Part shown: one piece after another, positions 5,732-62,215 of the stretch
Position numbering within the stretch: position 1 is the first letter of the stretch
How the letters are laid out: each line of letters opens with the position of its first letter
Source: an uncultured Thermoleophilia bacterium
GTDB taxonomy: Bacteria; Actinomycetota; Thermoleophilia; UBA2241
Direction: 5' to 3'
Assembly (NCBI GenBank): GCA_963715985.1
Contig: CAVQSP010000014.1
Coordinates: forward strand, 416,001-480,000
DNA length: 64,000 bases
The notes under the pieces: model-generated
What the model was told of the DNA's origin: nothing
What the model saw: only the letters and a program-made list of their open reading frames with translations
Databases searched by the model: none
Program-made: the position numbers and the translations under genes

Positions 5732-5789
5732 TTGACGTCGCCGCACGGCCGAGGCGCGTGCGTGTCCGGGGGGTGCGGCGCAGACCGGT

Positions 5790-5866
5790 GGTGGACGTAG
5801 CTCAGTTGGTAGAGCTCCAGGTTGTGGCCCTGGCGGTCGCGGGTTCAAGTCCCGTCGTTCACCCCA
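5790..5866 (+). tRNA. tRNA-His (GTG)
   Basis: Cloverleaf with acceptor GTGGACG/CGTTCAC, G-1 and C73, anticodon arm CCAGG-TTGTGGC-CCTGG, T-loop TTCAAGT and encoded CCA. Confidence 0.97.
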
Positions 5867-5917
5867 TCCACGCGATGCACCGGCCGGCGCGAGCGCCGGC
5901 CGTCGACGTTAACGCGT

Positions 5918-6003
5918 GCGGGTGTGGCGGAACTGGTAGACGCGCTAGACTTAGGATCTGGTGAGCTCTGCTCGTGGAGGTTCAAGTCCTCTCACCCGCA
6001 CCA
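5918..6003 (+). tRNA. tRNA-Leu (TAG)
   Basis: Acceptor GCGGGTG/CACCCGC, anticodon loop CTTAGGA, long variable arm, TTCAAGT, discriminator A plus CCA. Confidence 0.97.
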
Positions 6004-6087
6004 CAGGCTCAAGCCTGGACCCCCGCACGGACCATAGAGCGGGCGGCGCGCGGCTCAGCCGCCCGGCCAACAGACGGAGAACACACA

Positions 6088-7521
6088 GTGAAGACGAAGG
6101 TCGAACCCACAGGCGAGAACGAGGTCCAGCTCAGCGTCGAGGTCCCCGCCGACGACGTGAGGAGGGCCTACGACCGCGCGGTGGCCAAGGTCCGCAGCGA
6201 GCTCCAGCTGCCGGGCTTCCGCAAGGGCCGCGTGCCCGTCACGCTGGTCGTACAACAGTTCGGCGTGGACTATCTCCGCGCCGAGGCGCTCGAAGACGCC
6301 ATCCCCGAGTGGGGCGACGAAGCCTTGCACGAGGCGGACCTGTACGAGAACGCCGTCGGCACCTCGGACCTCCAGGCAGGACCGCTGGATGAGGCGGCCG
6401 ACTACACGTTCACCATCAAGGTGCAGACGATGCCGGTGCCCGAGCTCGGCGCGTACAAGGGCCTGCGCGTGCCCAAGCGCGCGGTCGAGGTCACGGACGA
6501 GCAGGTGGAGGCGCAGCTCGCCATGCTGCAGGAGCGGCTTGCCAAGCTGCAGCCGGTCGAGGACCGCGCCGTGCGCAAGGGCGACTTCGTGCTCATGGAC
6601 TTCGCCGGTACGCAGGACGGCGAGCCCATCGAGGGGGCCGAGGGCAAGGACCAGATGTACGAGATCGGCAGTGGCAACCTCATCCCGGGCTTCGAGGAGG
6701 CCGTCCAGGGCGTCATGCACGGCGAGGAGAAGATGTTCGACATCACCTTCCCGGACGACTACCACGCCGAGGACCTCGCCGGCAAGGCCGCCAGCTTCAC
6801 CGTGACCGTCAAGGAGATCAAGGAGAAGATCGTCCCCGATCTGGACGACGCCTTCGCCGTCGATGTGAGCGAGTTCGAGACGATGGACGAGCTGCGCGCG
6901 GACGTGCGTGCGCGCCTCGAGGCGGCCATACAGGCCGGCGTGCGCCGCGAGTTCCGCGCCGCCGCCGTGGACAAGGCGGTCGAGAACGCCACCGTCGAGG
7001 TGCCGTCCACGATGATCGACCGCGAGGCCCACCACCTCTACCACGAGCTCGAGGAGAACGTGGGCGAGCGCGGCCTCACCATGGAGGTCTACCTCGGCGT
7101 GCTCGCCAAGAGCCCCGAGGACGTGGAGCAGGAGCTGCGCCCGCAGGCCGAGCACGCCATCAAGAGGCGTCTCGTGCTGGAGTGCATCGCCGAGGCGGAG
7201 GGCCTCGAGATCGGCGACGATGAGATGCTCGAGTTGATCAAGACCGACGCCGCCGCCCTCGGCCGCGACCCGCTGCAGCTCATCGCCGATCTGCGCGAAT
7301 CGGGCAGGCAAGAGGCCGTACGCGCCGAAATGCTACTGGCCAAGACCGTCGACCTGGTGGCCGACGCGGCGGTGCCGGTGCCGCTCACGGAAGAGGAGGA
7401 GGCGGCCGAGGAGGACGCCGCCGACGCGGCCGAACCGGACGACGCCGAGCCTGAAGAGGCGGCGGCGGCCGAGGCCGCCGAAGAGGCGGCCGCAGACGAC
7501 GCAGACCCGGCCGCCGGCTGA
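6088..7521 (+). CDS. tig: Trigger factor
   Basis: [10 protein letters not shown] ribosome-binding loop and FKBP domain ([19 protein letters not shown]). GTG start after GGAGA; acidic tail. Confidence 0.95.
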
Positions 7522-7577
7522 CGTTTTGGCGCGGGAAACACCAGTGGGACAGTATCGATACCGGGAAGGGTGAGCAC

Positions 7578-8163
7578 GTGACACCACTTGTACCGTTCGT
7601 GATCGAACAGACCAGCCGCGGCGAGCGCTCGTTCGACATCTTCAGCAGGTTGCTCAACGAGCGCGTCATCTTCCTCGGCACGCCCGTCAACGACGACGTG
7701 GCCAACCTCATCGTGGCGCAGCTGATCCATCTGGAGTCGGACGACCCGGACAAGGACATCAGCCTGTATATCAACAGCCCCGGCGGTTCCGTGTACGCCG
7801 GCCTTGCCATCTACGACACGATGCAGTTCATCAAGCCCGACGTCAGCACCATCTGCGTCGGCAGCGCCATGAGCATGGGGGCGCTGCTGCTCGCCGGCGG
7901 GCGCCAAGGGCAAGCGCTTCGCGCTGCCCAACGCGCGTATCCTCATCCACCAGATCATGGGCGGCTACGAGGGCCAGGCCACCGACATCGAGATCCACGC
8001 CAAAGAGGTCATCGACCTGCGCAAGCGGCTCGACGAGATCCTCGCCGACCACACCGGTCAGCCGCCCGAGCAGGTGCGCAAGGACACGGAGCGCGACAAC
8101 TTCATGTCCGCGGCGGAGGCCAGAGAGTACGGCATCATCGACGACGTCATCGCCCACAGGTAG
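7578..8163 (+). CDS. clpP: ATP-dependent Clp protease proteolytic subunit; frameshift near 7900
   Basis: [20 protein letters not shown], catalytic Ser in AMSMG. ILIHQ and ERDNFMSA...YGIID are in the shifted frame. Confidence 0.93.
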
Positions 8164-20746: not shown

Positions 20747-21950
<1,204 letters not shown>

Positions 21951-44930: not shown

Positions 44931-45671
44931 ATGAACGCCGGTAGCGGCACCCGCCGGCTCGACTGGATCCTCTCTCCCGAGCCCAGTCACGACCCGCGGG
45001 GTCCGGGCGCCGGCCTCACCGTCGGCGTGCTCGCCCTCCAGGGCGACTTCCGCGAGCACCGCGTGGCCCTGGAGAAGCTCGGCGTGCTCACCCGCGAGGT
45101 GCGCCTGCCGGAGCAGCTGGTCGGGCTGGACGGTCTGGTCATCCCCGGCGGCGAGAGCACCACCATGAGCAAGCTCATGCACGCATACGAGCTGGCCGAC
45201 CCCATCGCCGCCTTTCACGGCGGCGGCGGCGCCGTGTTCGGCACCTGCGCGGGTCTCATCATCGTGTCCCGCGACACGGTGGAGGGCATGCCGCCCACGC
45301 TGGGCCTCCTGGACGTCGTCGCGCGGCGCAACGCGTTCGGGCGCCAGGTGCGCAGCTTCGAGGCCGACCTGGAGGTCCAAAGCGTGGACGGGGGGCCCGT
45401 GCGCGCCGTCTTCATCCGCGCCCCGTGGATCGAGAGCGCGGGGCCGCAGGTGGAGGTCCTCGCGACGTGCGAGGGCCGCGCGGTCGCCGCTCGCCAGGGG
45501 CGCGTGCTGGTCACGGCGTTCCACCCCGAGCTCACCGCCGACACGCGAGTGCACGAGCTGTTCATCGAGCTGATCCGCCGGCAGGGCGTGGCGGGCGACC
45601 CGGAGGGTGCGGCGCGGCCGCGCGCTGCCGGCGAGCCCGGCCGGACTGTCGCGGCGCCAGTCAACTGCTGA
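44931..45671 (+). CDS. pdxT: PLP synthase glutaminase subunit
   Basis: GVLALQGDF, PGGEST, GTCAG, RNAFGRQ, FIRAP, FHPE. Confidence 0.96.
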   Translation: MNAGSGTRRLDWILSPEPSHDPRGPGAGLTVGVLALQGDFREHRVALEKLGVLTREVRLPEQLVGLDGLVIPGGESTTMSKLMHAYELADPIAAFHGGGGAVFGTCAGLIIVSRDTVEGMPPTLGLLDVVARRNAFGRQVRSFEADLEVQSVDGGPVRAVFIRAPWIESAGPQVEVLATCEGRAVAARQGRVLVTAFHPELTADTRVHELFIELIRRQGVAGDPEGAARPRAAGEPGRTVAAPVNC

Positions 45672-45687
45672 GAGAGGAGGGGTCCTC

Positions 45688-46437
45688 GTGTCCGGGCACT
45701 CCAAATGGGCCACCATCAAGCACAAGAAGGGCAAGACCGACGCCAGGCGCGGCAAGCTGTTCTCCAAGCTCTCGCGCGCCATCACAGTAGCCGCCCGTGA
45801 GGGCGGGTCCGACCCGACCATGAACATCTCGCTGGCCAACGCCATCGAGAAGGCCAAGGCCGAATCCATGCCCAAGGACAACATCGAGCGCGCCATCCAG
45901 CGCGGCGGCGGCGGCGCCGACGGCGAGACCTACGAGCACATCCTCTACGAGGGCTACGGCCCGGCCGGCGTGGCCATCATCGTCGAGGTGCTCACCGACA
46001 ACAAGAACCGTTCGGCCGCCGAGGTGCGCAATATCTTCTCCAAGCACGGCGGCCAGCTCGCGCAGCCGGGCGCGGTGGCCTGGGTCTTCGAGCGGCGCGG
46101 CTCCATCATGGTGGACGGCAGCAGGTTCGCCGAGGACGACATCATGACGGCCGCCATCGAGGCGGGCGCCGAGGACGTCGTGCAGGACGGCGACCAGTTC
46201 GACGTGCTCACGCAGCCGGCCGACTTCGCGGCCGTGCGGGACGCCATGGCGGCCGCGGGCATCGAGTTCGAGCAGGCCGAGCTCACGATGATCCCGAAGA
46301 ACACCGTCAAGCTCGAGGAGAACGACGCGCGCAAGACCATGAAGATCGTCGACGCGCTCGAAGACAGCGACGACGTACAGGAGGTCTTCGCCAACTTCGA
46401 CATCCCCGAGGACGTCCTCGAAAGCCTGGCCGAGTAA
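45688..46437 (+). CDS. yebC: YebC/PmpR-family protein
   Basis: SGHSKWATIKHKK, YEGYGPAG, TDNKNR. Confidence 0.95.
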   Translation: MSGHSKWATIKHKKGKTDARRGKLFSKLSRAITVAAREGGSDPTMNISLANAIEKAKAESMPKDNIERAIQRGGGGADGETYEHILYEGYGPAGVAIIVEVLTDNKNRSAAEVRNIFSKHGGQLAQPGAVAWVFERRGSIMVDGSRFAEDDIMTAAIEAGAEDVVQDGDQFDVLTQPADFAAVRDAMAAAGIEFEQAELTMIPKNTVKLEENDARKTMKIVDALEDSDDVQEVFANFDIPEDVLESLAE

Positions 46438-46482
46438 CACGGCAGCGGCCGGCCACAGGCGCGGACGACGGGGGGAGCGCAC

Positions 46483-46998
46483 ATGATCGTCCTGGGGTTC
46501 GACCCCGGCACGGCGAGCACCGGCTGGGGCGTCATCGAGCAGAACGGCAACCGCCTGCGCTCACTCGGCCACGGCTGCATCGTCACGTCGGCCAAGGACC
46601 CCACGCACACGCGCCTGCGCCAGATCCACGACCAGGCGCGCGGGCTCATCAAGCGCTTCTCCCCGGACATCGTGGTGCTCGAGGAGCTCTTCGTGAACGT
46701 CAACGTCAAGACGGCGCTCGCCGTCGGCCAGGCCAAGGGTGTGCTGTACCTGGCCGCCTCGGACCTGCCCGCGGCTCCCGCCGAGTACTCACCGCTGCAG
46801 ATCAAGCTCGCCGTCACCGGGTACGGACGCGCCAGCAAGGTGCAGGTCCAGGAGATGACCAAGGTCATCCTGGGGCTCGAGCGCATCCCACAGCCGGATC
46901 ACGCCGCGGACGCCCTGGCGGTGGCCATCACCCACACCCACCACAACAGCGAGGCGTTCAACGCGGCCCTGCGGCGGGCCCCGGGCAGGCGGCCGTGA
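46483..46998 (+). CDS. ruvC: Holliday junction resolvase
   Basis: LGFDPG, TGWGVI, GYGRASK.QV, DHAADALAVA. Confidence 0.95.
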   Translation: MIVLGFDPGTASTGWGVIEQNGNRLRSLGHGCIVTSAKDPTHTRLRQIHDQARGLIKRFSPDIVVLEELFVNVNVKTALAVGQAKGVLYLAASDLPAAPAEYSPLQIKLAVTGYGRASKVQVQEMTKVILGLERIPQPDHAADALAVAITHTHHNSEAFNAALRRAPGRRP

Positions 46999-47600
46999 TC
47001 GCCTCCGTGCGCGGCGCGCTGCGGCAGCTGGACGGCGAGCGCGCCGTCATCGAGGTCGGCGGCTTCGGCATCGAGGTGCTCGCCTCGGGGCGCACTTTGG
47101 GCTCGCTCTCCGGTCGCCTCGGGGATGAGGTGGCACTGCAGACGTACCTGCACGTACGCGAGGACGCCCTGCAGCTCTTCGGGTTCACGTCCGCGAGGGA
47201 GCGCACCTTCTTCCTCTGGCTCATCGGCGTCAGCGGAGTGGGGCCCAAGGTCGCGCTCGCGGTGCTGTCCGGGTACCCCGTGGAGGACCTGGAACTGGCG
47301 GTGGCGCGCGACGACGTCAAGAAGTTCGAGAGCATCCCCGGCATCGGCAAGAAGCTCGCCCAGCGGCTCGTGGTGGAGCTCGGCGACAAGGTGGGGGAGC
47401 TGCCGCCGGTGGGCGCCGCTGAGGCCGGCGGTACCGGCGGTCCGGCTCCGTCCGACTCCTTCCTCGCCGCGCGCTCGGCGCTCCAGAACCTGGGCCTCAC
47501 GTTGCGCGAGGCCGAAGAGGCTCTGCGCGGCGCGCCCGAGGGCGCGTCGCTTGAAGACCTCGTCAAGTTCGCGCTCACGCGGGACGGGGGCAAGACGTGA
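46995..47600 (+). CDS. ruvA: Holliday junction branch migration protein
   Basis: [27 protein letters not shown]. Confidence 0.95.
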
Positions 47601-48634
47601 GCCCGCGCCCGGACCGCATCGGCGACCCGGTGGAGCGCGCCGACGACCGCGACCTCGAGCTCGGCCTGCGGCCGCGCCGCTTCGCCGACTTCGTCGGCCA
47701 GCGCGCGGCCAAGGAGCAGCTCGAGATCTTCGTGCAGGCGGCCCGCAACCGCGGCGACACCCTCGACCACGTGCTCATCGCCGGACCTCCGGGCCTCGGC
47801 AAGACCACCCTCGCCGGCATCATCGCCACCGAGCTCGGCGTGGGCATGCACACCACCTCGGGGCCGGCGCTGGAGCGCAAGGTGGACGTCGCCGGGCTGC
47901 TCACCAATCTGCAGGAGGGCGACGTCCTCTTCGTCGACGAGATCCACCGCCTCAACGCCGCGGTCGAGGAGGTCCTCTATCCGGCCATGGAGGACTACGA
48001 GATCGACATCATGATCGGCGAGGGCCCCGCGGCACGCAGCATCCGCATGCAGGTACAGCCGTTCACGCTCATCGGGGCCACCACGCGCACCGGCCTGCTC
48101 ACCACACCGCTACGCGACCGCTTCGGCGTCTGGCAGCGCCTCGAGTACTACGAGATCGAGGAGCTCGCGCGCATCGTCCGGCGCTCCGCCGGCATCCTGG
48201 GCGTGACCATCGACGACGAGTCCGCCCTCGAGATCGCCGGGCGCTCACGCGGCACACCGCGTGTCGCCAACCGTCTGCTGAGGCGCGTGCGCGACTACGC
48301 CGAGGTGCGCCATGACGGCGTCATCGAGGTCCCCATCTGTCTGGACGCCCTCAAGCTCTTCCAGGTGGACGCAGAAGGGCTGGACAAGCTCGACCGCGAC
48401 ATCCTCTGTGCCATCGCGCAGAAGTTCGACGGCGGTCCGGTGGGTCTCGACACGCTCGCGGTCGCGCTCGGCGAGGAGGCCGACACGGTGATGGACGTCT
48501 ACGAGCCCTACCTGATCATGCAGGGCTTTCTCAAGCGCACGCCGCGCGGGCGCGTGCTCACGCGCTCGGGCTTCGCTCACTGCGGTCTCACTCCGCCGAC
48601 GGGTGCGGCCGGCACGTTGTTCGACGAGGCATAG
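47597..48634 (+). CDS. ruvB: Holliday junction DNA helicase
   Basis: [38 protein letters not shown]. Confidence 0.97.
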
Positions 48635-48645
48635 GCCGGCCGGTC

Positions 48646-49221
48646 GTGGACGACCTGCTTCTGCACGTGTGCTGCGGGCCTTGTTCCACGGTGGCAGTGC
48701 CGGCCTGGCGCGAGCGCGGCCTCGAGCCGGTGGCCTGGTTCCACAACCCCAACATCCAGCCGGCCGCGGAGCTGGAGCGCCGCCTCGAGACCATGCGGCG
48801 CTTCGCCCGCGCGGCCGGCCTCGAGCTCGTGGAGGAGCCGAGAATGGCCACCGCGGACGCCACCGCCTGGGCGGCATGGGCGAGCCGCCAGGTCACCGCG
48901 GCGCCGGATGTCCGGTGCGCCGCCTGCATCAGCTCGCGTATGGAGGCGGCCGCGGCGGCCGCGGAGCGCCTGGGCGTGCGCCGCTTCTCCACCAGCCTCA
49001 GTGTGAGTCCATACCAGCGGCACGACCTCATCGTGGCGGCCGGGGAAGAGGCGGGGTCCCGGCACGGCGTGGACTTCGCCTACCTCGACCTGCGCGCGGA
49101 CTTCCGCGCCAGCTACGCCGAGAGCCGGCGTCTGGACCTCTATCGCCAGTCGTACTGTGGGTGCGCCGCCAGCAAGTGGGAGGCCTGGCACGGGCGCCGG
49201 GCGCGGCGGGGGGCGGGATGA
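48646..49221 (+). CDS. queH: Epoxyqueuosine reductase QueH (DUF208)
   Basis: LLHVCCGPC, NPNI.P, RCAAC, SP, YRQSYCGC. Confidence 0.9.
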   Translation: MDDLLLHVCCGPCSTVAVPAWRERGLEPVAWFHNPNIQPAAELERRLETMRRFARAAGLELVEEPRMATADATAWAAWASRQVTAAPDVRCAACISSRMEAAAAAAERLGVRRFSTSLSVSPYQRHDLIVAAGEEAGSRHGVDFAYLDLRADFRASYAESRRLDLYRQSYCGCAASKWEAWHGRRARRGAG

Positions 49222-50297
49222 CCGCTTCCGGCGCCGCCGCGCTGCGCCTCGAGGACCTCGACTACGACCTGCCGCCGGAGCTTGTCGCGCAGCATCCGGC
49301 CGACCCGCGCGACTCGTCGCGACTGCTGATCTGGGACCGGCAGGCATCACTGCTCGCAGACCGCCGCTTCAGCGACCTGCCCGCCCTGCTGCGGCCCGGC
49401 GACGTGCTGGTGCGCAACGACACCCGCGTGTTCCCCGCGCGGGCCTTCTTCCGCCGCGCCACGGGGGGGCGCATCGAGGCGCTCTTCCTGCGGCCGGCGG
49501 GCGCAGCCGGCCCGGCCGGTCCGGAGGCCGCTTCCGGCGTCTGGGAGGTCCTTCTGCGAGGGCGCCCGCGTCCCGGCGAGACGCTCACCAGTGAGGCGCT
49601 CGGCGACGCCTGGCCGCTGGTCTGCCGGGAGCCTCTCGGCGACGGCCGCTGGACGGTGACCAGCGGCGCCTCCCGCGACGTCTTCGACCTCCTCGAGGAG
49701 GCGGGCGTCACTCCACTGCCGCCGTACATCCGTGAGGAGCTTGACGACCCCGGCCGCTACCAGACCGTGTACGCCCGCGTGCGCGGCTCCTCCGCCGCGC
49801 CCACCGCCGGCCTGCACTTCACCCCCGAGCTGGACGCGGCCCTCGCGAGCGCCGGCGTGACCATCGAAAGCGTGACGCTGCACGTGGGCCTGGGCACGTT
49901 CAAGCCGCTGCAGGAGGACGGTCTCGCGTCCGCGGAGCTGCACGCCGAGGTCTACGAGCTGCAGGCGGACGTCTGGAGCAGGCTGCTCGGCGCGCGCGCC
50001 GACGGCCGCCGCGTGGTGGCGGTGGGCACCACGTCGCTGCGCGTGCTGGAGCACGTGGCGGCCGCCGCCCTGACCGGGGAGGCGCCGCTGTGCGGCGAGA
50101 CCCGGCTCTTCATCCGCCCCGGCCACGAGTTCCTCGCCGTGGACGGGCTGGTGACCAACTTCCACCTGCCGCGCACCAGCCTGCTCGCCCTCGTCATGGC
50201 CTTCTGCGGCGTGGAGCAGACGCGCCACCTGTACGCGCACGCGGTGGAGCGACGCTACCGCTTCTACAGCTTCGGCGACGCCATGCTGGCCTTGTGA
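49218..50297 (+). CDS. queA: S-adenosylmethionine:tRNA ribosyltransferase-isomerase
   Basis: [49 protein letters not shown]. Confidence 0.96.
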
Positions 50298-50344
50298 GCC
50301 GGCACGGTTACAACGCGCGGCCGGGCGCCCAGCCCGGCGCCCCC

Positions 50345-51464
<1,120 letters not shown>

Positions 51465-51469
51465 GCCGC

Positions 51470-51913
51470 ATGGGCGGAGGCGCGGCCATCATCATCTGGA
51501 TCCTGGTCTTCTTCGGGATCTTCTACTTCCTGGCCATCAGGCCTCAGCGCCGCCAGAAGGCGCAGCACTCCGAGATGGTGCAGATGCTCAAGCGTGGCGA
51601 CGAGGTCGTCACCATCGGCGGTATGTTCGGCACCGTCACCAAGATCGGCGACGACTGGGTAGAGCTCGAGATCGCCAAGCGCACCAAAGTCCGGTACCTC
51701 AAGCGCGCTGTCTCGTCGATCACCAACATCGTCGAGGACGACGAGGACGAGGACGAGTACATCGAAGCGGGCGAGGACGACGTCGTGGACGAGACGGAGG
51801 GCACCGCTGAGGTGGCCGACGAGGTCGACGAAGAGCCCGTCGCCGAGGCGGAGGACGAGGTGGTGGACGAGGTGCCGGACGCACCCGTCCCTCCCAAGGA
51901 GCCGTCCGCCTGA
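51470..51913 (+). CDS. yajC: Preprotein translocase subunit YajC with long acidic tail
   Basis: [21 protein letters not shown]; SD AGGAGG; internal promoter TGCTAAGAT at 51367. Confidence 0.92.
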
Positions 51914-51951
51914 TTGCGCCGCCTCGAGCCTGGCAGTCATGAGTACTGAAC

Positions 51952-51984
51952 CGACGAGCCCTGCAGGCCCTGCAGGGCTCGTCG
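51952..51984 (+). terminator. 15-bp hairpin after yajC
   Basis: CGACGAGCCCTGCAG-gcc-CTGCAGGGCTCGTCG; no clear U-tract. Confidence 0.6.
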
Positions 51985-52062
51985 CATTCGGGAGATGCAG
52001 GGATTCTTGCCTGCGGCCCGAACTGCGTTCTGACGTGGTGTCGACACAGGGGTAACGCTTTC

Positions 52063-52821
52063 ATGGCGCATGTCATCGCCTTCGCGAACCAGAAGGGCGG
52101 CGTAGCCAAGACCACCTCCACAGTGAACCTGGGGGCCGCCCTGCGTGAGCACGACCTGAGGGTGCTGGCCGTGGACATGGACCCCCAGGGCAACCTGACC
52201 ATGAGCCAGGGCATCGACACCGAGGGGCTCGAGAAGAGCATGTACGACGTCCTCGTGCACCGTCTGCCCATCGAGGACGTCATCTACGAGCGCGAGCTGG
52301 ATGTGGCGGCCGCCACCATCGACCTCGCCGGCGCCGAGATGGCGCTCGCGCAGATGATCGGCCGCGAGCGCGCCCTTCAGCGCGCCCTGGACCCCGTGCG
52401 CGAGCGCTACGACTACATCCTCATCGACACGCCTCCGTCGCTGGGGCTGCTCACCATCAACGCCCTCACCGCTTCAGAAGGCGTCATCGTGCCGGTACAG
52501 TGTGAGTACCTGTCGCTGAGGGGCCTGCTGCAGCTGGAGAGGACGCTGGAGATGATCCGCGAGAACCTCAATCCCGAAGTGCGTATCAAGGGCATCCTGC
52601 CGACGCTGTTCGACGCCCGCACGAGCCACGGCAGGGAGTCCATCGAGGTGCTGCGCGACAACTTCGGCCCGCTCGTGTTCGACACGGTGGTGCGCAAGAC
52701 CATCAAGTTCGCCGAAGCGCCGGTCATCGGGGCCTCGGTGCTCAAGTACGACCCCCGCGGCAGGGGGGCCGAATCGTACCGCGCCCTCGCGCGGGAGGTG
52801 CTGAATGGTCGATCGTCCTAG
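52063..52821 (+). CDS. parA: ParA/Soj-family ATPase (orphan, no parB)
   Basis: [10 protein letters not shown] deviant Walker [32 protein letters not shown]. Confidence 0.93.
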
Positions 52822-54001
52822 CATGAAGGATGGACTGAGCGAGCTCTTCCGGCGCACGGACAGCGCGGGGCCGCCGCCTGAGGCCGCCCAGGATGCGGTC
52901 GTCAAAGGGCGGCCGTACGTGACCACCATCAAGGTCGTGGGTGTGGGCGGCGCCGGCACCAACGCCGTGAACCGCATGGTCGACTCGGGCGTGAAGGGCG
53001 TCGAGTTCATCGCCATCAACACCGACGTTCAGCAGCTCGGGATGTGCGACGCCGACGTCAAGATCCACATCGGCCAGGAGCTCACGCACGGCCTCGGAGG
53101 CGGCGCCAACCCGGAGGTCGGGCGCGAGGCCATGGAGGCGTCGCGCGACCAGCTCAAGGCGGCGTTGCGCGGCGCCGACCTGGTCTTCGTCACGGCCGGC
53201 GAGGGCGGCGGCACAGGCACCGGCGGTGCGCCCGTGGTCGCCCAGGTGGCGCACGAGCTCGGCGCCGTCACCATCGCCATCGTCACCAAGCCGTTCGGCT
53301 TCGAGGGCAACCGCCGGATGCACCAGGCGCTGGACGGCATCGACGTCATGCGCAGCATCGCCGACACCGTCATCAGCATCCCCAACGACCGCCTGCTCGA
53401 GGTCGTGGAGCGCAACACCAGCGTGGTCGAGGCGTTCAAGCACGCCGACGACATCCTGCGCCAGGGCGTGCAGGGCATCACCGACCTCATCACGGTGCCC
53501 GGCCTCATCAACCTGGACTTCGCCGACGTGCGCACCATCGTCAAGGACGCCGGCACGGCCCTGCTCGGCATCGGCGTGGCCGGGGGCGAGAACCGCGCCC
53601 AGGCCGCCGCCGACGCGGCCATCCATTCGCCGCTCCTGGAGACCTCCATCGACGGCGCCCGCGGGCTGCTGCTCAACATCACCGGCGGCGAGGACCTCAC
53701 GCTCTTCGAGGTCAACGAGGCCGCCGGTGTCATCGGCGAAGCCGCCGACGACGACGCCAACATCATCTTCGGCGCCGTGGTGGACGAGCGGCTCAAGGGC
53801 AAGATCTCCATCACCGTCGTGGCCACCGGCTTCGGCGACGCAGCGCCGCGCCAGTCCGCAGAGGCGGCGCCCGACCGCGCCCGTCCGCTCGCCGAGACCG
53901 TGCGCGAGGCTCCGGCCCCGTCGAAGCCGTTCGGCAGTGCGCCGACGTTCGATTCCGGGGACTTCGAGATCCCGTCCTTCGTGCGCCAGCCTGAGGAGTA
54001 G
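52805..54001 (+). CDS. ftsZ: Cell division protein FtsZ with N-terminal extension
   Basis: [26 protein letters not shown]7 loop NLDFAD, C-terminal EIPSF peptide. SD GGAGG 6 nt before the ATG, inside parA. Confidence 0.95.
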
Positions 54002-54034
54002 CCCGTTTGACTGCGCATCCCGGAGGCGACGACC

Positions 54035-54802
54035 GTGCCTGCTGACGCGGCCGTCGCCGCACCTCCGGTAGCCCTGGAGCTGGACCTCGACGTCTTCGAC
54101 GGGCCGTTCGACCTCCTCGTCACGCTCATCCTCAAGGACGAGATCGACATCTGGGAGGTACGCGTCTCGAGCATCATCGCCGAGTACGTCCTCAAGCTTG
54201 CCGACAGCGGCGAGTTCGACCTCGACGCCACCTCGCAGTTCGTGGTGCTGGTGGCGGCGCTGCTGGAGATGAAGTCACGTCTGCTCCTCGAGGAGGACGT
54301 CGAGGAGGAGCTCGAGGATCTTGACCCGGACGAGGCGGCCGCGCGGCTCCTCGAGCGCCTGGTGCGCTACAGCCAGTTCAAGAACGCCGCCGTCGCGCTG
54401 CGCGCGCGGTGGGAGGAGCACAGCGGGCGCCTGTACAGGACGGCGCCGGTACCGGCGTCGCTGCTGCGCCGGCCGGCCCCCGAAGGGGCCCTGCCGGCGC
54501 GGGCCCTGGCCGCCGCCCTCGCGCCGCTGCTGCGCGAGCCTCCGGTCCCCGACACGAGCCACCTCGCCGATCTCGCCGTGTCGCTGGTCAAGGAGCTCCG
54601 CCGTCTGCGCCTCATCCTCGGCGACACCGGCGAGTTCACGTTCTCCTCGGTGGCGCCCGACGACCGTCTGGAGCGTGCCGTCACCTTCTTCGCGCTGCTC
54701 GAGCTGCATTCGGGAGGCGAGGCGACGCTGCGCCAGCGGCGGCACTTCGGCGACATCACGGTGACCCGGCTGCCCGAGCTCGCGCCGGCCGTCGCCGGGT
54801 GA
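54035..54802 (+). CDS. scpA: Segregation and condensation protein A (kleisin)
   Basis: FDGPFDLLVTLI, LLEMKSRLL, FFALLEL, FGDI. Confidence 0.92.
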   Translation: MPADAAVAAPPVALELDLDVFDGPFDLLVTLILKDEIDIWEVRVSSIIAEYVLKLADSGEFDLDATSQFVVLVAALLEMKSRLLLEEDVEEELEDLDPDEAAARLLERLVRYSQFKNAAVALRARWEEHSGRLYRTAPVPASLLRRPAPEGALPARALAAALAPLLREPPVPDTSHLADLAVSLVKELRRLRLILGDTGEFTFSSVAPDDRLERAVTFFALLELHSGGEATLRQRRHFGDITVTRLPELAPAVAG

Positions 54803-54864
54803 CGCCGGGCGCCGGACTGCGGTAGCATCGGTCTCACCAGTTCACTGGCCGACCCCGGGATCTC

Positions 54865-55441
54865 ATGCCGACACTCACCCAGCGCCTCGAAGCGCTCCTG
54901 TTCATCTCCCCGCGTCCGCTTCCGCCTGCCGAGATGGCGGCGGCCTGCGCGGCGTCCGCGAGAGGAGGTGGAGTCGGCGCTGGTTGCGCTGCGTGAGGAG
55001 TACGCCGCCGGGCGTCACGGCCTGGTACTGAGGGAGGTCGCGGGTGGTGTGACCATGGCCGTCGCCCCCGAGTGCGAGGACGACGTGCGCCGCCTCACCG
55101 GGGCCGAGCGCCCGGACGACCTCACGCCGGCACTGCTCGAGACGCTCGCGGTGGTGGCCTATCTGCAGCCGGTGACGCGCGCCGACGTGGCCGAGGTGCG
55201 CGGCGTGTCCTCGGAGTGGGCCCTCTCCTCGCTCGAGGAGCGTGGCTTGGTGGTGCAACAGGGCCGCGCGGACAGTCCCGGCTCGCCCATCCTGTACGGG
55301 ACGGGCGAGCGCTTTCTCAAGCTGTTCGGCCTCGACGCCTCTACGGCGCTGCCCCCGCTCGAGGAGTTCGCTCTCCAGCCGTCGGACGTGGACGAGATCC
55401 GCGCCCGGCTCTTCGCCAATGCCGAGAGGAGACGGGTGTGA
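54865..55441 (+). CDS. scpB: Segregation and condensation protein B; frameshift near 54950
   Basis: LEALLF, LETLAVVAYLQPVTR, RGV, YGT..FL..FGL. Confidence 0.9.
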
Positions 55442-56548
55442 GTCAGCCCATGAACCTTGTGGTCTACCTGGCGCGCGCCGGGGTCGGATCGCGTCGTACG
55501 TGTGACGAGCTCGTGCGCGACGGAGCGGTCACCGTGAACGGCGAGGTGGTCACGTTCCCGCGCCAGAAGATCGGCGAGGAGGACGTGGTAGCCGTGCGCG
55601 GTGACACCGTCGAGCCGCGCGAGCTGCGCTACCTGCTCGTCAACAAACCGCGAGGCGTGGCGAGCACGCGCAGCGACCCCCACGCCGACCGCGTGATCGT
55701 GGACCTGGTCCCGAACGGCCGCATGCTGTTCCCGGTCGGCCGACTGGACGTGGACACCACCGGCCTCATCATCCTCACCAACGACGGCGTGCTGGCCAAC
55801 AGGCTGATGCACCCACGCTACGGCGTGCCCAAGACCTACGCGGCGCGTGTCAAAGGCAAGGTCAGCAGGCGGGCGCTCGGTGCACTTCGCCAGGGCGTCG
55901 AGCTCGAGGACGGCCTTACGGCGCCCGCGGAGGTCAACCTGCGCAAGCAGAGCGCCAAGACGGCCCTCGTCGACATCACCATCCACGAGGGCCGCAAGCG
56001 CCAGGTGCGGCGCATGTTCGCGTCGGTGGGCCTGCCGGTGGAGGAGCTCCACCGGCGCCGGTACGGCCCTATCGCCGACAAAGGCCTTGAGCCGGGCGGC
56101 TTCCGCGAGCTGGCCGGGGACGAGGTGGAGGCGCTGCGCCAGGCCTGCGGAAGAGGTGGCCGACGCGGTGGGCCAGGAGTCAGAGGGCCAGCCACTGATG
56201 CTCGCGGCCGAGGCACAGCCCGTCCTGTCGGACGCGAGCCTGGTCGCACCCGATGCCGAGGTCGCGGAGGCGACCATGCTGGCGCCGGCCCCCGAGTCCG
56301 CGCCGTCTCCACAGACCGCGCCGGCCTCCAGGGAGCCTGCAGCCGCGGAGTCCGCGGCGGGGACTTCCGCGCCGTCTGCTGAGCTCGGCGACTCCTCCGG
56401 CGCCGAGCCCGGACCCGAGCACACCGCCGGCGACGCGCCGGAGCCAGACGATGGTCCCGGCGAGGATCCGGAGCCAGACGACGCCCCCGGCGACGAGGCG
56501 AGGTCCGACGCCGCTGCCGGGGAGCCCGGCGCGGGAGAGGACGGCTGA
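55438..56548 (+). CDS. rluB: rRNA pseudouridine synthase (RsuA/RluB family) with acidic tail; frameshift near 56150
   Basis: S4 domain, NKPRG, PVGRLDVDTTGL, EGRKRQVRRM. The acidic low-complexity tail is in the frame ending at 56548. Confidence 0.88.
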
Positions 56549-56576
56549 TGCCCGCGAAAGCGAGTCCGCTCTGAGC

Positions 56577-57593
56577 ATGCTCGTCGTCATGCGCGAGGGC
56601 GCGACGGAGGGCGACGTGGCCCGCGTCGTGGCGCGCGTGGAAGAGGTCGGGGCGAGCGCCCACATCTCGGTCGGGGAGCGCGTGACCATCGTCGCCGTGC
56701 TCGGCGACCGCGAGTCCATCACCCAGCTGCCGCTCGAGGTCATGCCGGGAGTGGACCGCGTGGTGGCCATCCTGCGCCCGTACAAGCTCGTCAGCCGCGA
56801 GTTCCAGCAGCACGACACCGTGATCGACGTGCGCGGCGCCAAGATAGGCGGCGGCCACTTCGCGATCATCGCCGGACCCTGCTCGGTGGAGACCCCGGAG
56901 CAGGTGCTCGCCGCAGCGCGCGCCGTCAAGGCGGCCGGCGGCCACATGATGCGCGGCGGCGCCTTCAAGCCGCGCACCTCGCCCTATGCCTTCCAGGGCC
57001 TGGGCGAGGAAGGCCTGCAGATGCTCGCCGCCGCCCGCGACGAGACCGGCCTCCCGATCGTCACCGAAGTGATGGATCCGCGCGACCTGGACGTGGTGTG
57101 CGAGTACGCGGACGTGCTCCAGATCGGCGCCCGCAACACGCAGAACTTCCTGCTCCTGGCGGAGGTGGGCAGGATCGCCAAGCCGGTGCTCCTGAAGCGT
57201 GGTCCGTCCACCACGATCGAGGAGCTGCTCATGGCGGCCGAGTACATCGTCAAGGAGGGCAACCGCGAGGTGATCCTGTGTGAGCGCGGCATCCGCACGT
57301 TCGAGCCGGCCACGCGCAACACGTTCGACGTCAGCGCGGTGCCGGTGATCAAGCTCGCCAGCCACCTGCCCGTGGTGGTCGACCCGAGCCACTCCGCCGG
57401 CCGGCTCGACCTCGTCCTGCCGCTCTCGCTGGCCGGCGTCGCCGCCGGGGCGGACGGTGTGCTGGTGGAGACGCATCCCAACCCGGAGCACGCCCTGTGC
57501 GACGGTCCGCAGTCGCTGCCCACGGCCGTGTTCGGCGAGTACGCCGGCCGCGTCCTGGACCTGGCACGCTGGGCCGGCAAGACGGTGAAGTGA
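56577..57593 (+). CDS. aroF: 3-deoxy-7-phosphoheptulonate (DAHP) synthase, class I-beta, with N-terminal regulatory domain
   Basis: IAGPCSVE, GGAFKPRTSPY, QIGARN, LCERG, DPSH, CDGPQ. Confidence 0.95.
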   Translation: MLVVMREGATEGDVARVVARVEEVGASAHISVGERVTIVAVLGDRESITQLPLEVMPGVDRVVAILRPYKLVSREFQQHDTVIDVRGAKIGGGHFAIIAGPCSVETPEQVLAAARAVKAAGGHMMRGGAFKPRTSPYAFQGLGEEGLQMLAAARDETGLPIVTEVMDPRDLDVVCEYADVLQIGARNTQNFLLLAEVGRIAKPVLLKRGPSTTIEELLMAAEYIVKEGNREVILCERGIRTFEPATRNTFDVSAVPVIKLASHLPVVVDPSHSAGRLDLVLPLSLAGVAAGADGVLVETHPNPEHALCDGPQSLPTAVFGEYAGRVLDLARWAGKTVK

Positions 57594-57597
57594 GGCG

Positions 57598-58710
57598 GTG
57601 AGCGACGTGGCCGTCAGGACCGTTGCCGTCATCGGCGTCGGCCTCATGGGCGGTTCGCTGGGGCTGGCGGCACGCGAACGCGCCGGGGTGACCGAGGTCC
57701 GTGGCTACAGCCAGACCCGGGCGACACTCGACCTCGCGCTGGAACGCGGTGCCATCACCACCGCGTGTGCGAGTCTCGAGGAGGCTGCCACGGGCGCCGA
57801 CCTCGTCTTCGTGTGCACGCCGGTGCGCCTCGTGGTGAAGCACGTCAAGGCGGCGCTCGCGGCGGCGCCGCCGCACGCCGTGATCAGCGACGTGGGCAGC
57901 ACCAAGGGCCCGCTGATGCGGGCGCTCACTCCCGAGGAGCAGGAGCGCTGTGTGGGAGGGCACCCGCTGTGCGGCTCGGAGACGGCCGGCGTGGCCAACG
58001 CCCGCGCCTCCCTGTATGAGGGCGCCACCTACTTCGTCACGCCCGGCGACCACGTGTCCACCGAGGCCTACCAGCTCCTGTACGGCTTCCTCGGCGACAT
58101 CGGCTCGCGGCCGGTCGCCGTGGACCCGGAGGAGCACGACCGCCTGATGGCCGTGGTCAGCCACCTCCCTCACGTGCTCGCCAACGTCCTCATGACGCAG
58201 GCCGGGCTGCACACGGGCTCCCGCGACGCGCTTCTCTCGGCGGGCCCCAGCTTCCGCGACCTCACGCGCGTGGCCGGCAGCAACCGGCGCGTGTGGACCG
58301 ACATCTTCCTCGAGAACAGGGCGGCTCTGCTGGCCGCCCTCGCGACCTTCCAGCAGGGCCTGCAGGAGGTGCTGGAGGCGCTCGCGGCCAACGACGCCGA
58401 GCGCCTCGGCGACACCATCCGCAACGCGGCCTCGCAGCGCGAGCGCATGCTCGCCGCCGGCAGCCTCACGGCCCGCGAGCTGCATCGCCTCATCGTGCGC
58501 GTGCCCGACAGGCCCGGCGTGTTCAGCGAGATCATGGTGGCCCTCGGCGACGCCGGCATCAACATCGAGGACCTCTCCATGCACCACATGAGCGCCGAGC
58601 TCGGGGGCACGCTCACCGTGTACGTGCTCGGCGAGGACGCGAGCCTGCGCGGCCTGCACATCCTCGCCGGCCTGGGCTACGACGTGATCACCGGGAGCGA
58701 GCTGGAATGA
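57598..58710 (+). CDS. tyrA: Prephenate dehydrogenase with C-terminal ACT domain
   Basis: [20 protein letters not shown]...[18 protein letters not shown]. Confidence 0.93.
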
Positions 58711-59367
58711 CGGTCGTGGCGGTGGACGGTCCCGTAGGCTCGGGCAAGAGCACGGTGGCCCGCCGCGTGGCCGTTCGCCTCGGCTACGTCTACTTGGACA
58801 CCGGGGCCATGTACCGGGCGGTGGGGCTGCTCGCCACGGAGGCGGGAGTGTCGCTGGACGACGAGGCCGCCGTGGTGGCCGTGGCCGGCGCCGCGCGCCT
58901 GCGCTTCGACGGCGACGGCCGCCTCTTCGCCGGCGAGCGCGACGTGAGCGAGGCCATCCGCACGCTGGAGATGGGCGCGGCGGCCTCGCGCGTCTCTGCG
59001 CTGCCCGGCGTCCGCTCGTTGCTGGTGGAGCGAGCAGCGGCGCCTCGCCGGGTCCTCCGACATCGTCATGGAGGGCCGCGACATCGGCACCAACGTGTTC
59101 CCGGGTGCCGAGGTCAAGGTGTTCCTGACGGCGCGCCCGGAGGTGCGGGCGGCGCGCCGTGCCGCCGAGCTGCTCGCGAAGGGAGAAGACGTCGACGAGG
59201 CCACGGTGCTGGCGGCGCTCCTCGAGCGCGACGAGCGCGACTCCACCCGCACGGTGGCGCCGCTGCGCAAGGCCGATGACGCCGTGGAGGTGGACACCTC
59301 CGAGCTGACACTCGACGAGGTCGTCGACGCCGTGGTGGCCATCGCTCGGGAGAGGACCGCGCCGTGA
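58707..59367 (+). CDS. cmk: Cytidylate kinase; frameshift near 59033
   Basis: [35 protein letters not shown]. Confidence 0.93.
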
Positions 59368-60006
59368 AGCTCTGGGGACTGCCGCTCGTCGGGTACGGGG
59401 ACAGCGGCCTCTACACGTTCTGCCGCTTCCTCGCCGTGCCCCTGTTCGGCGGCGTCTACGGCTGCCGCGTCACGGGCGCCGGGAACCTGCCCCGCACCGG
59501 CCCCGTGATCGTGGCCTGCAATCACAAGGCCAACATCGACCCCGTGATCGCCGGCATGGTCTGCGACCGGCCGCTGCGCTACATGGCCAAGAAGGAGCTG
59601 TTCCGCCACGCGCCCTTCCGCAAGCTCATCGTGAGCCTGGGCGCCTTTCCCATCGATCGGGGCGCCGGCGACCGCGAGGCCCTGCGCACGTCGCTGGACA
59701 TCCTCGGGGAGGGCGGCGTGCTGCTGATGTTCCCGGAGGGCCACCGCCAGCACGACGACGCCATCCACGACTTCATGCCCGGTGTCGGCATGCTCGCCCT
59801 GCGCAGCGGCGCCCCCGTGGTGCCGCTGGCCATGGACGGTACGCAGCGCATGATGCCGGATGGGCGTCCGCACCTCACCGGTGCTGCGTACCGCCATCGG
59901 CCCGCCCATCGACATGGGCGACCTCACGGCGCGCAACAGCAAGACCTACCAGGAGGCGGCGCGGCGCATGCAGCAGGCCCTGACCGATCTGTATGCGGGG
60001 CTCTGA
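59364..60006 (+). CDS. plsC: 1-acyl-sn-glycerol-3-phosphate acyltransferase; frameshift near 59880
   Basis: NHxxxxD (NHKANID), MAKKEL, FPEG.R. Confidence 0.9.
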
Positions 60007-60097
60007 CCCGGCGCCGCGCGAGACCGGCGAGCAGCGCCCCGACGAGGTCGTCGAGCCGGAGCGGCGCGCCGAGCTCCGCCAGGTGCGCACCGGCACC

Positions 60098-60944
60098 GTG
60101 GAGATCGTCGTGGCGCGGTACGCGGGCTACTGCTACGGGGTCGAGAGAGCACTGCGCACCACGGAGGAGGCCCTCGAGGGCGCCGTGGGTCCGGTCGCGA
60201 GCCTGGGCCCCATCATCCACAACCCTACGGTGGTCGGGCAGCTCGAGGCCCGTGGTGTGGCCGTGGTGGACGATGCCGAACACATGGAGAGCGGCACGCT
60301 GATCGTGCGCACCCACGGCGTGGCGCCCGCACGTGGTCGAACGCGCCCGGGAGCGCAACCTCGCCGTGGTCGACGCCACCTGCCCGTTCGTGGCGGTGGC
60401 GCAGCGCAAGGCGGCGAGCCTGCGCGAGGCGGGCTACGCGGTCGTGATCCTGGGGGAGCGCGACCACCCCGAGGTGGCCGGGCTGCAGGGCTTCGCGGGA
60501 GAGGGCGCCGTGGTGGTGGAGGACGCCGCCGGTCTGCCGCTGGAACGGCTGCGCGGCAAGCGCGTCGGCCTCGTGGTGCAGACCACGCAGACGCGCGCCA
60601 ACCTCGCCAGCGTGGCCGCGGCCGTCGCGCCGGTGGCGCGGGAGATGCTGGTGTACAACACCATCTGCGACGCCACCGAGAAGCGCCAGGACGCGGCCTG
60701 CGAGCTGGCCGCGGAGGTGGACGCCGTGGTCGTGGTCGGCGGCCGCAACAGCGCCAACACGGCGCGGCTGGCCCAGCTCTGCCTGGCCATCGAGCCGCGC
60801 ACCCACCACATCGAGTCGGCCGCCGAGCTGCGCCCGGAGTGGTTCGCCGGCGCCGCGCGTGTGGGCGTGACCGCCGGGGCCTCGACCCCGGACGAGGAGA
60901 TCGAGGCCACCGTGGTGGCCCTGGTGGACCTCTGTGGCGGCTGA
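60098..60944 (+). CDS. ispH: 4-hydroxy-3-methylbut-2-enyl diphosphate reductase; frameshift near 60330
   Basis: AGYCYGVERA, IIHN, RTHG, DATCP, QTT, TICDAT, SAN, AGASTP. Confidence 0.94.
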
Positions 60945-62215
60945 CGCGGCCGGCGGCCTGCCGGTGGCCGCGGTCCAGGACGCCGCGGCGCGGGCCGGCC
61001 TGCGCGCCGGCGACTGCATCGCGCGCATCGACGGCGAGGTGCCCGTGGACGTCCTCGACCTCGAGATGGCCGCCGCCGACGAGGTGTTCACCCTGACCGT
61101 GCTGCGCGACGGGCATCCGCTCGACGTTGCCGTCGCGCAGCGCCCCGGCGAGTGGCACGGCATCTCTCTGGGCCACGACGGCCTCGGCGACGAGCCGCGC
61201 GTGTGCCGCAACCGCTGCCGCTTCTGCTTCGTCGACCAGGTGCCGCCGGGCCTGCGCGCCGCCTTGTACGTGAAGGACGACGACTACCGCCTGTCGTTCC
61301 TGCACGGCAACTTCACCACGCTCACCAACCTGGCCGAGAGTGACGTGCGAGCGCATCCTCGCGCTGCGGCTCTCGCCGCTCTACGTGTCGCTGCACGCCT
61401 GGGACGACGCGGCGCGCGTGCGCCTCATGGGGCGCGCCGCGGCGGGCTCGCGGGAGACGCTCGAGCGGCTTGCCGCCGCCGGCCTCGAGCTCCACCTCCA
61501 GGTGGTGCTGTGCCCGGGCTGGAACGACGGCGACGTGCTCGCCGGCACCGTGGAGGGCGCCGCCTCGCTGGCCGCCGTCGCCGATCTCGGCATCGTGCCG
61601 GTGTCGCTGGCCGAGGAGGGCGACCTGCGGCGCGTGACCGGCGCCGACGCCGAGGCCGTGCTGGCCGCCGTCGAGGCCTGGCAGGAGCGCTTTCGCGCCG
61701 AGCGCGGCGCGGCCTTCGTGCACGCCGCCGACGAGTTCCACCTGCTCTGCGGACGCACGCCGCCGGCGAGCGACGCGCCCGACCAGTACGAGAACGGCAT
61801 CGGGATGTCGGCGCAGCTGCTGGAGGAGGCGGAGGACCTCGGGAGGGACGACGTGCCGGGCGGCCCGGCCGACCGGGCCGGAGCGGTGGCGCCGTGCGCC
61901 TGCTGACCGGCACGCTGGCGGCGCCGGTGGTGGCGCGCGCGGGCGACGCCCTCGGCGCGCGCCTCGGCGTAGCCGTGCGGCCGTTCCCCGTGGCGAACCG
62001 CCTGTTCGGCGACCACGTGACGGTGACGGGCCTTCTGGGGGGGCGCGAAGTGCTCGCGGCGCTCGGCGCCGACCCGCTCGCCGAAGGCGAATGGCTGGTC
62101 GCGCCGCGCGTGTTCGTGCCGGCGGACTCTCGGGCGCACGCTCGACGACGTCGGCGAGGACGACCTCGCGGCCGCCTGCGGCGGCCGCCTCATCCTCGCA
62201 ACGGTCCCTTCGTGA
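60934..62215 (+). CDS. PDZ + radical SAM protein (DUF512); several frameshifts, 3' end uncertain
   Basis: CRNRCRFCFVDQ, KDDDYRLSFL.GN, QVVLCPG.NDG, ADEF, QYENGIG, VTGLL; upstream of der. Confidence 0.85.

Follow-up and report, generated by a model that had tools for sequence, protein, structure and literature searches.

A ParA-type ATPase and a complete paralogue of the division protein FtsZ are encoded by overlapping genes in a 64,000-nucleotide stretch of DNA (hereafter the window; contig CAVQSP010000014.1 of assembly GCA_963715985.1, positions 416,001 to 480,000) from an uncultured bacterium of the class Thermoleophilia. The pair comprises parA (52063..52821 of the window, plus strand, 252 aa; Pfam AAA_31, 2.2e-60) and ftsZ2 (52805..54001, plus strand, 398 aa; TIGR00065, 407.9 bits, the cut-off being 295.2), and comparison across the class leaves little doubt that the two form a conserved functional module. 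Judged from sequence comparison, it is probable that this is a translationally coupled two-gene module of the Thermoleophilia in which FtsZ2 serves as the direct partner, or cargo, of the ATPase. An initial annotation of the window had suggested that FtsZ fills the partner slot of ParA in a two-gene module, and the comparative evidence points strongly the same way: the pair is kept while its flanks change, and FtsZ2 carries at its N-terminus a peptide of the type found on the protein encoded after a related, scpA-linked ParA in other classes.

At E <= 1e-85 this ParA is present in 74 of 76 Thermoleophilia genomes from 10 families and 44 genera. When the rows were compared by hand, 72 of those 74 genomes had an ftsZ immediately downstream of it, with contig and strand the same; the contigs of the remaining two (G273 and G255) end inside ftsZ2, with the N-terminal peptide present just after parA. 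The two class genomes without the ATPase (92% and 95% complete) have a single ftsZ. ParA lies directly upstream of the second ftsZ in all 20 loci that were fetched, from 7 families, and the genes around the pair differ among families: yajC and scpAB in f1, unrelated genes in f4, and, in a single locus from each of f2, f3 and f5, a gamma-glutamyltranspeptidase gene downstream. Most genomes compared are metagenome-assembled genomes (MAGs), and that of the window is a MAG of 88.8% completeness and 7.3% contamination with a frameshift in the nearby tgt gene, features that could suit an assembly chimera or a one-off rearrangement. Adjacency of parA and ftsZ is a property of the class, however (72 of 76 genomes), and not of a single assembly. 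About 25 named public MAG contigs of the window's family repeat the order yajC-parA-ftsZ2-scpAB, and of the words sampled from the stretch a share of 0.46-0.69 recurs in each of 15 metagenome runs from wetlands (metagenome and metatranscriptome runs were examined as short contigs, and uncovered parts of the stretch carry no meaning). Given this class-wide recurrence a chimera or one-off rearrangement was rejected, the chance of either being vanishingly small. The scan of named genome contigs yielded FtsZ2 loci from the window's own family only (L025-L051), the other 53 loci being of FtsZ1 type. In two of the contigs, L030 and L032, parA is frameshifted (two tblastn segments in different frames) and the locus is otherwise syntenic; these frameshifts are probably assembly indels.

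Two ftsZ genes are present in the genome, both on one 810-kb contig (C14). The first, ftsZ1 (C14:256866-257822), closes a canonical division and cell wall (dcw) cluster, mraW-ftsI-murE-murF/mraY-murD-ftsW-murG-murC-ftsQ, and lies 212 kb from the window copy; the two proteins are 64% identical. The window gene had been described initially as a non-dcw FtsZ. It does stand outside the dcw cluster, whose ftsZ position is filled by FtsZ1, but it is not the sole FtsZ of the organism, being a second paralogue beside a normal dcw-linked copy on the same contig. Two or more ftsZ matches occur in 39 of 41 relatives. Among 201 genomes drawn from the phylum, two ftsZ genes were found in the window genome and in all 14 others of its class, as against 7 of 186 genomes from other classes. 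Five of these seven other-class genomes were examined, and in all five the copies are in tandem (G083, G124, G137 and G162 of family f35, and G221 of f56; loci L125-L134), and G076 has a weak best match that is probably a split gene.

Both FtsZ1 and FtsZ2 were placed on a 72-row FtsZ tree which, like the other tree described here, was built by quick search with support from the Shimodaira-Hasegawa-like approximate likelihood-ratio test (SH-aLRT) only. The ParA-linked FtsZ2 proteins form one clade (SH-aLRT 94) among the FtsZ1 proteins of Thermoleophilia. Tandem copies from f35 and f56 fall into clades of their own, each copy separate, a pattern that suggests these families duplicated ftsZ independently of the Thermoleophilia; with these separate clades, and with no N-terminal motif on the tandem copies, they were rejected as the origin of FtsZ2. 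Between families the core of FtsZ2 has a mean identity of 60% versus 74% for FtsZ1 and is the less conserved in 184 of 184 pairs, and none of the core columns shows a fixed difference between the paralogues. By these comparisons FtsZ2 arose by duplication of the dcw FtsZ, is specific to the class and evolves faster, and its catalytic and polymerisation motifs are intact.

The protein fits the FtsZ equivalog family, scoring above the TIGR00065 cut-off with both of the expected domains (core at 52928..53833, plus strand; GTPase domain at residues 42-201, Pfam Tubulin 9.1e-46, and FtsZ_C at residues 250-343, 5.5e-34). The full set of FtsZ motifs recorded in the initial annotation is there: GGGTGTG at residues 134-140, the T7 loop NLDFAD at 236-241, and the C-terminal peptide DFEIPSFVR at 386-394 (53960..53986, plus strand), a kind of peptide to which membrane anchors of FtsZ bind. 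Residues G134-G140, N236, D238 and D241 are invariant in 20 FtsZ2 orthologues, and the anchor peptide is present in 6 of 7 families, being absent from four loci of family f2 (L005, L010, L015 and L020). That loss, together with the long branches, the variable N-terminal linker and C-terminal tail, and an ancestral ParA partner that was probably a DNA-binding protein (see below), might be taken to mean that FtsZ2 has left cell division and operates with ParA as some other ParA-driven cytoskeletal system, for example in DNA or nucleoid organisation or in developmental division. A score above a curated FtsZ equivalog cut-off, and an anchor peptide that in most families is very like that of FtsZ1, argue against such a departure, and we consider it very improbable.

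The initial annotation had placed the start of ftsZ2 17 nt inside parA, with its ribosome-binding site also within parA, and this layout holds. Both open reading frames (ORFs) exist, and a Shine-Dalgarno-like GGGAGG (52793..52798, plus strand, read from the sequence) sits within the parA coding sequence 6 nt before the ATG at 52805. An alternative in-frame ATG at 52823 lies 1 nt past the parA stop. Of 21 orthologous loci, two have leucine in place of the internal methionine that it encodes, whereas all 21 have a start codon that overlaps the end of parA by 4-71 nt; hence the overlapping codon is taken as the real start. GGAGG or GAGAGG strings are visible, by eye and uncounted, at the junctions of most orthologous loci. 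From start codon to core, FtsZ2 spans 36 to about 167 residues across families and is short in the window. Family f6 has a ParA tail some 18 aa longer, which results in an ftsZ2 overlap of 68-71 nt; in that family (L009, G029:C3, ~4294-8005) the pair is divergent from dnaA-dnaN-recF, the presumed replication origin. Open frames of up to 860 codons brought a ParA-FtsZ fusion into consideration. It was rejected: in L010 the ParA and FtsZ2 sequences do not share a frame, and ParA has its own stop in all 21 loci, either ahead of ftsZ2 or within its first few codons.

The N-terminus of FtsZ2 is where it departs from its paralogue. Residues 1-19 (52805..52861, plus strand), identified by motif comparison and proposed here as a ParA-docking and ATPase-activating peptide, precede a variable linker of residues 20-37 (52862..52915, plus strand), delimited by alignment of the orthologous loci. 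The consensus [KR][KR]AS-M-[KR][ED]G(P)L[AS][ED]LFR.T[ED] occurs in all 21 orthologues, which represent seven families; M1, L11, L14 and F15 are invariant, and R4, S6, M7 and T18 are at least 90% conserved. FtsZ1 has no such peptide and begins a few residues before the core; the peptide and its variable, flexible linker are the only consistent difference between the two paralogues. The peptide is conserved as protein while its codons vary, and it lies mostly beyond the parA stop, so the constraint of overlapping genes does not explain it. In ParA/MinD (A/D) systems the ATPase gene is reported usually to lie beside the cargo gene, and partners to dock through a charged, disordered N-terminus while the partner's remaining portion binds cargo (available portions of 10.1101/2022.06.09.495121). 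The gene adjacent to parA here fits that description in position and N-terminal sequence, in that ftsZ2 overlaps parA in 21 of 21 loci and encodes an N-terminal peptide with conserved basic residues.

A closely similar peptide heads a different protein in other classes of the phylum. The best relatives of the window ParA in those classes are 47-56% identical to it, and 7 of 12 loci have scpA-scpB-rluB downstream of the ParA gene at a distance of 0.5-3.1 kb. The gene directly after such an scpA-linked ParA encodes a protein of 114-175 aa that starts M.[KR]RASLPGA[DE]ELFR.T (examples among loci L188-L198 are L193:3755-4168 and L196:3758-4285, both on the plus strand), with a charged N-terminal peptide, a disordered linker and a C-terminal domain. 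No Pfam domain was found in this small partner. It has 570 database relatives, and the 120 names listed are all "hypothetical protein" save one "cobyrinic acid a,c-diamide synthase". It was found in 48 of the 201 genomes of the phylum draw, 6 of them unpublished, and in none of the 15 Thermoleophilia genomes; in the rows whose coordinates were compared, the match adjoins that of the ParA.

The C-terminal 60 residues of the small partner were modelled with a predicted local distance difference test (pLDDT) above 90. A Foldseek search of this model against the PDB gave nothing at E <= 0.001, the best matches being NikR and Arc at E >= 1. With VIA-align, most of the 50 matches listed were ribbon-helix-helix or antitoxin proteins, at modest Z of 3.6-6.5, among them the pCXC100 centromere-binding protein, omega and ParG. 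The domain probably has a ribbon-helix-helix fold. This family of hypothetical proteins is the probable partner of the scpA-linked ParA of other classes; if so, that ParA is not an orphan and has a dedicated partner. The family may already have a published name; a literature search for a Streptomyces ParA-like protein, "ParH", with an adjacent partner returned nothing relevant.

The shared motif is narrowly distributed. Written as a pattern, it has a single match, the start of FtsZ2, in 7.45 million residues of six-frame ORFs from its own genome. In 566,000 residues of non-Thermoleophilia loci, 22 of 22 matches head the ORF that follows an scpA-clade ParA; these matches come from 13 genomes, 3 of them unpublished, and the published ones alone show the motif after ParA in 10 of 10. 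No match was found after ParB-linked ParAs, after a third clade of orphan ParAs, or in the tandem FtsZ loci. We regard it as rather likely, on this pattern of sequence conservation, that ParA and the N-terminal peptide of FtsZ2 are in direct contact. The published principle of partner docking (10.1101/2022.06.09.495121) supports a further chain of inference, in which a duplicate of ftsZ was swapped into the adaptor gene of a ParA of the PldP/Rv1708 type with the docking peptide retained, so that a tubulin-family protein would have become the ATPase-activating partner of a ParA. We rate the chance of such a swap as about even.

Several observations weigh against this interpretation. The motif pattern is post hoc, written once both sets of sequences had been seen. 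The N-terminus of FtsZ2 is outside the 12 best own-genome matches of a hidden Markov model (HMM) of the partner peptide, and the reverse search with a peptide HMM was insignificant (E ~2-30). In the 57-row ParA tree, which resolves a ParB-linked clade (99), an FtsZ2-linked clade (98) and the scpA-linked clade of other classes (91), the FtsZ2-linked ParAs are sister not to the scpA-linked clade but to the third orphan clade (SH-aLRT 92-93), and members of the latter have no peptide-bearing gene downstream. Forcing the FtsZ2-linked and scpA-linked ParAs together costs 1.23 log-likelihood units (lnL) and is not rejected by the approximately unbiased (AU) test (p = 0.46). The resemblance to the actinomycete ParA that precedes scpA, noted in the initial annotation, accordingly stands as to position within the window's family, with orthology left unsettled by the tree. 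DNA binding by ParA is read solely from conserved basic positions, and the FtsZ2 of family f2, which has no C-terminal anchor peptide, suggests that downstream connections may differ by family. Prediction of a complex of a ParA dimer, two ATP and FtsZ2 residues 1-37 gave run scores of 0.32, 0.00 and 0.00, which count neither way. The third orphan clade (L192, L199, L206, L208, L211 and L213) comes from other classes, and its neighbours are genes for a DUF5319 protein and a DEAD-box helicase.

The ATPase itself has the features of a ParA/Soj-type protein. It matches Pfam CbiA (1.8e-25) and reaches no NCBIfam equivalog cut-off; the general ParA domain scores 204.1 bits, the MipZ profile a weak 37.3 bits, and the MinD profile TIGR01968 45.6 bits against a cut-off of 212.9. 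Among solved structures its nearest relatives belong to ParA/Soj proteins (E from 7e-65 to 3e-47), and it is 43% identical to the Soj of the same genome, which belongs to a separate Soj-ParB pair on contig C10; no other close ParA was found in the genome. The ParA of a ParABS system is encoded with its ParB, and here matches to ParB_N occur solely beside the other ParA, on C10. The P-loop is a deviant Walker A motif, K11GGVAK16TT, accompanied by D38 and D40 (Walker A') and D122 (Walker B), and K11, K16, D38, D40 and D122 are invariant among the aligned orthologues. Basic residues at the positions that the initial annotation matched to DNA-binding residues of Soj are likewise present as R186 in FDART and R211 and K212 in VVRK, R186 being nearly invariant and K212 invariant among orthologues. 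Its claim that ParA has no MinD-type C-terminal membrane helix agrees with inspection of the tail by eye (unscored), which discerned no amphipathic segment. Because ParA keeps the ATP-binding residues and the basic R186 and K212, and no membrane helix is read, it is likely that the ATPase uses the nucleoid as its matrix.

From these elements a mechanism can be proposed. The ancestor would have had a ParA with a ribbon-helix-helix adaptor near scpAB; on the stem of the Thermoleophilia, a duplicate of ftsZ would have replaced the DNA-binding domain of the adaptor, leaving FtsZ2 as adaptor and cargo at once. ATP-bound ParA dimers on the nucleoid would bind the N-terminal peptide of FtsZ2, and the peptide would stimulate ATP hydrolysis and release of ParA, much as ParB, ParG, MinE and McdB act on their respective ATPases. 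Assemblies of FtsZ2 might thereby be placed by the ParA gradient with respect to the nucleoid, either at its middle or between two nucleoids, as in PomXYZ and McdAB, and FtsZ2 could then mark the site of the Z-ring through its C-terminal peptide, possibly co-assembling with FtsZ1. Division-site positioning as the output of the module is put forward tentatively, at somewhat less than an even chance.

Positive positioning is favoured, and its main rival is sequestration of the nucleoid-occlusion type. There, DNA-bound ParA-ATP would hold FtsZ2 by its peptide, and FtsZ2 would cap or poison FtsZ1, so that rings form only in DNA-free zones. The conservation of the pair and the peptide evidence fit this scheme equally well, and faster evolution would suit a regulatory paralogue. 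An Agrobacterium FtsZ paralogue is reported to inhibit division when overexpressed (available part of 10.1101/2025.09.29.679267), and MipZ is named as a ParA-like protein that regulates FtsZ negatively (accessible text of PMC10482377). Yet FtsZ2 retains all the polymerisation and GTPase motifs, together with an anchor peptide in 6 of 7 families, which a pure poison would be likelier to lose, and it has no core position fixed differently from FtsZ1. We therefore hold sequestration to be unlikely and favour positive positioning.

Downstream of ftsZ2 in the window, as the initial annotation stated, scpA and scpB follow directly. The scpA gene (54035..54802, plus strand; Pfam SMC_ScpA, 8.8e-20) starts 33 nt past the ftsZ2 stop; scpB, as its ORF was listed, occupies 54968..55441 (plus strand; Pfam SMC_ScpB, 1.4e-38; TIGR00281, 105.9 bits), and the profile match begins at model position 31, so that the true start may be further upstream. 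After these come rluB, genes for DAHP synthase and prephenate dehydrogenase, cmk, plsC and lytB, and upstream of parA the order is yebC-ruvCAB-queA-tgt-yajC. Co-expression with the subunits of the SMC complex had been suggested from this arrangement. The adjacency is real in the window's family (scpA-scpB downstream in 4 of 4 same-genus loci and in about 26 close relatives) but is absent from 16 of 16 loci of six other families, even at E 1e-3.

This distribution bears on another explanation, co-expression without contact, by which ParA would act on the chromosome or on SMC-ScpAB, FtsZ2 would merely be timed with segregation, and the peptide would bind something else. Rv1708 is reported to bind ScpA and ParB (available portion of PMC10482377), scpAB follows the pair in the window's family, and the pair adjoins dnaA in f6. 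Linkage to scpAB is nevertheless missing from all 16 loci of the other six families while the parA-ftsZ2 overlap is kept. Outside FtsZ2, moreover, the peptide has been seen only on the protein encoded after a related ParA, and that ParA is the only neighbour common to both peptide-bearing genes in every such locus. Timing without contact is thus a rather remote prospect beside a direct partnership of ParA with FtsZ2.

Expression signals around the pair were also considered. A perfect 15-bp hairpin (51952..51984, plus strand, from RNA folding) separates the stop codon of yajC (51913) from the start of parA; its stability of -36.2 kcal/mol (z = -5.1) was equalled by none of 200 shuffles, and it is probably a terminator without a T-tract, marking the start of a new transcription unit at parA. 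A scan of 51700-55600 for consensus promoters and terminators found none. One run from an RNA library (X16) has contigs that cross the parA/ftsZ2 junction (52712-52840 and 52731-52840, depth ~3), at most a weak hint of co-transcription, as RNA libraries can contain DNA.

In agreement with the initial annotation, Pfam scans of the main plus-strand ORFs from 45607 to 61096 showed no parB, ftsQ, sepF or mur gene, and the window's sole FtsA-like match (21372-21851), at 53 bits, falls well short of the cut-off of 175.85. Over the genome as assembled (88.8% complete), no FtsA exceeded the cut-off and no MinC_C match was seen; MinE was not searched for. The genome does encode one DivIVA and has two SepF-domain genes, at G000:C14:595673-595888 and G000:C17:119584-119796, one of them beside the DivIVA gene and the other inside a 521-codon open frame. 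Each FtsZ paralogue could have one of the two SepF proteins as its own anchor.

Two further features of the surroundings may be recorded. A SecD/SecF gene follows the dcw-linked ftsZ1 (G000:C14:256001-266000, L004), and yajC, which usually precedes secDF, is instead upstream of parA (51400-51913 of the window); the split hints at a past rearrangement between the two ftsZ neighbourhoods. The tgt gene (50090-51464) is divided over two frames near 50735-50745, the TGT Pfam profile matching with its positions 2-116 in the reading frame of ORF 50090-51913 and with 119-355 in that of ORF 50742-51464. Either an assembly indel or a pseudogene would account for it.

Placement of the division site in Actinobacteria is a long-standing gap. 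To our knowledge, these bacteria are without MinCDE and without Noc/SlmA. PldP (Cg1610) and Rv1708 are homologous orphan ParA-like proteins with reported division phenotypes, and PldP has been seen at the nucleoid and at septa (PMC3989709; 10.1101/2025.07.02.662783, in the portions available). The accessible part of the latter calls the function of PldP "enigmatic" and gives it no known partner, and in what is available of both sources the PldP/Rv1708 type is the one ParA-like candidate for site placement with neither partner nor mechanism assigned. The Thermoleophilia locus amounts to a natural experiment on this question, as an FtsZ with a partner peptide follows ParA across an entire class of actinobacteria from soils and wetlands, and it predicts a direct ParA-FtsZ interface. 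If the prediction is true, the Thermoleophilia use a gradient of ParA on the nucleoid to position a Z-ring protein directly, and the "orphan" division-linked ParA of actinobacteria has an unnamed partner family that can be recognised by RASLPGA[DE]ELFR. It would also give a handle on the choice of division site in actinobacteria without Min and Noc, and provide a clear example of ParA systems gaining new cargo through the swapping of adaptor domains. A literature search, which did not extend to supplementary tables, turned up no paper describing a parA-ftsZ module and none reporting two FtsZ proteins in Thermoleophilia.

Among known systems, MipZ-ParB of Caulobacter and MinCDE are alike in having ATPases of the ParA/MinD family that control where FtsZ assembles, and MinD is reported to bind FtsZ directly (available text of PMC10482377). 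Unlike the arrangement proposed here, MipZ and MinCD inhibit a single housekeeping FtsZ, are guided by ParB or the membrane, and are encoded apart from ftsZ. As to the second FtsZ, its retention has parallels in the plastid FtsZ1/FtsZ2 duplication and in the tandem actinobacterial pairs. Other duplications are reported for archaea (FtsZ1/FtsZ2) and for FtsZ1/FtsZ3 of Hyphomicrobiales and the FtsZ of Bradyrhizobium, the preprint on the last two covering Alphaproteobacteria only (10.1101/2025.09.29.679267, in the part available). In contrast to FtsZ2 of the Thermoleophilia, no coupling to a ParA and no ParA-partner peptide is described for any of these, and the tandem actinobacterial copies are without the motif.

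The closest likeness on the side of the ATPase is to PldP, Rv1708 and MSMEG_3743. As with these, the window ParA is a second chromosomal ParA beside ParAB and, in its family, precedes scpA-scpB-rluB; it also shares the conserved ATP-binding residues and basic surface positions of PldP and Rv1708, which the available portions of PMC3989709 and PMC10482377 tie to septum placement. It differs from them in being translationally coupled to an FtsZ paralogue that carries a partner peptide. The ParA and small partner of the other classes resemble ParF-ParG, delta-omega and the pCXC100 system, in which the partner has a flexible, activating N-terminal tail and, as is probable for the small partner, a ribbon-helix-helix domain. 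Unlike those systems they are chromosomal, and in the Thermoleophilia a whole FtsZ would replace the DNA-binding domain. In PomXYZ of Myxococcus and in McdAB of carboxysomes, a ParA-like ATPase positions protein cargo on the nucleoid, and the PomXYZ cargo promotes formation of the Z-ring. The module proposed here would be similar in that a nucleoid-bound ATPase positions a self-assembling cargo that activates the same ATPase. Separate adaptors (PomX/PomY and McdB) perform this task in PomXYZ and McdAB, whereas in the Thermoleophilia a tubulin homologue would be both adaptor and cargo.

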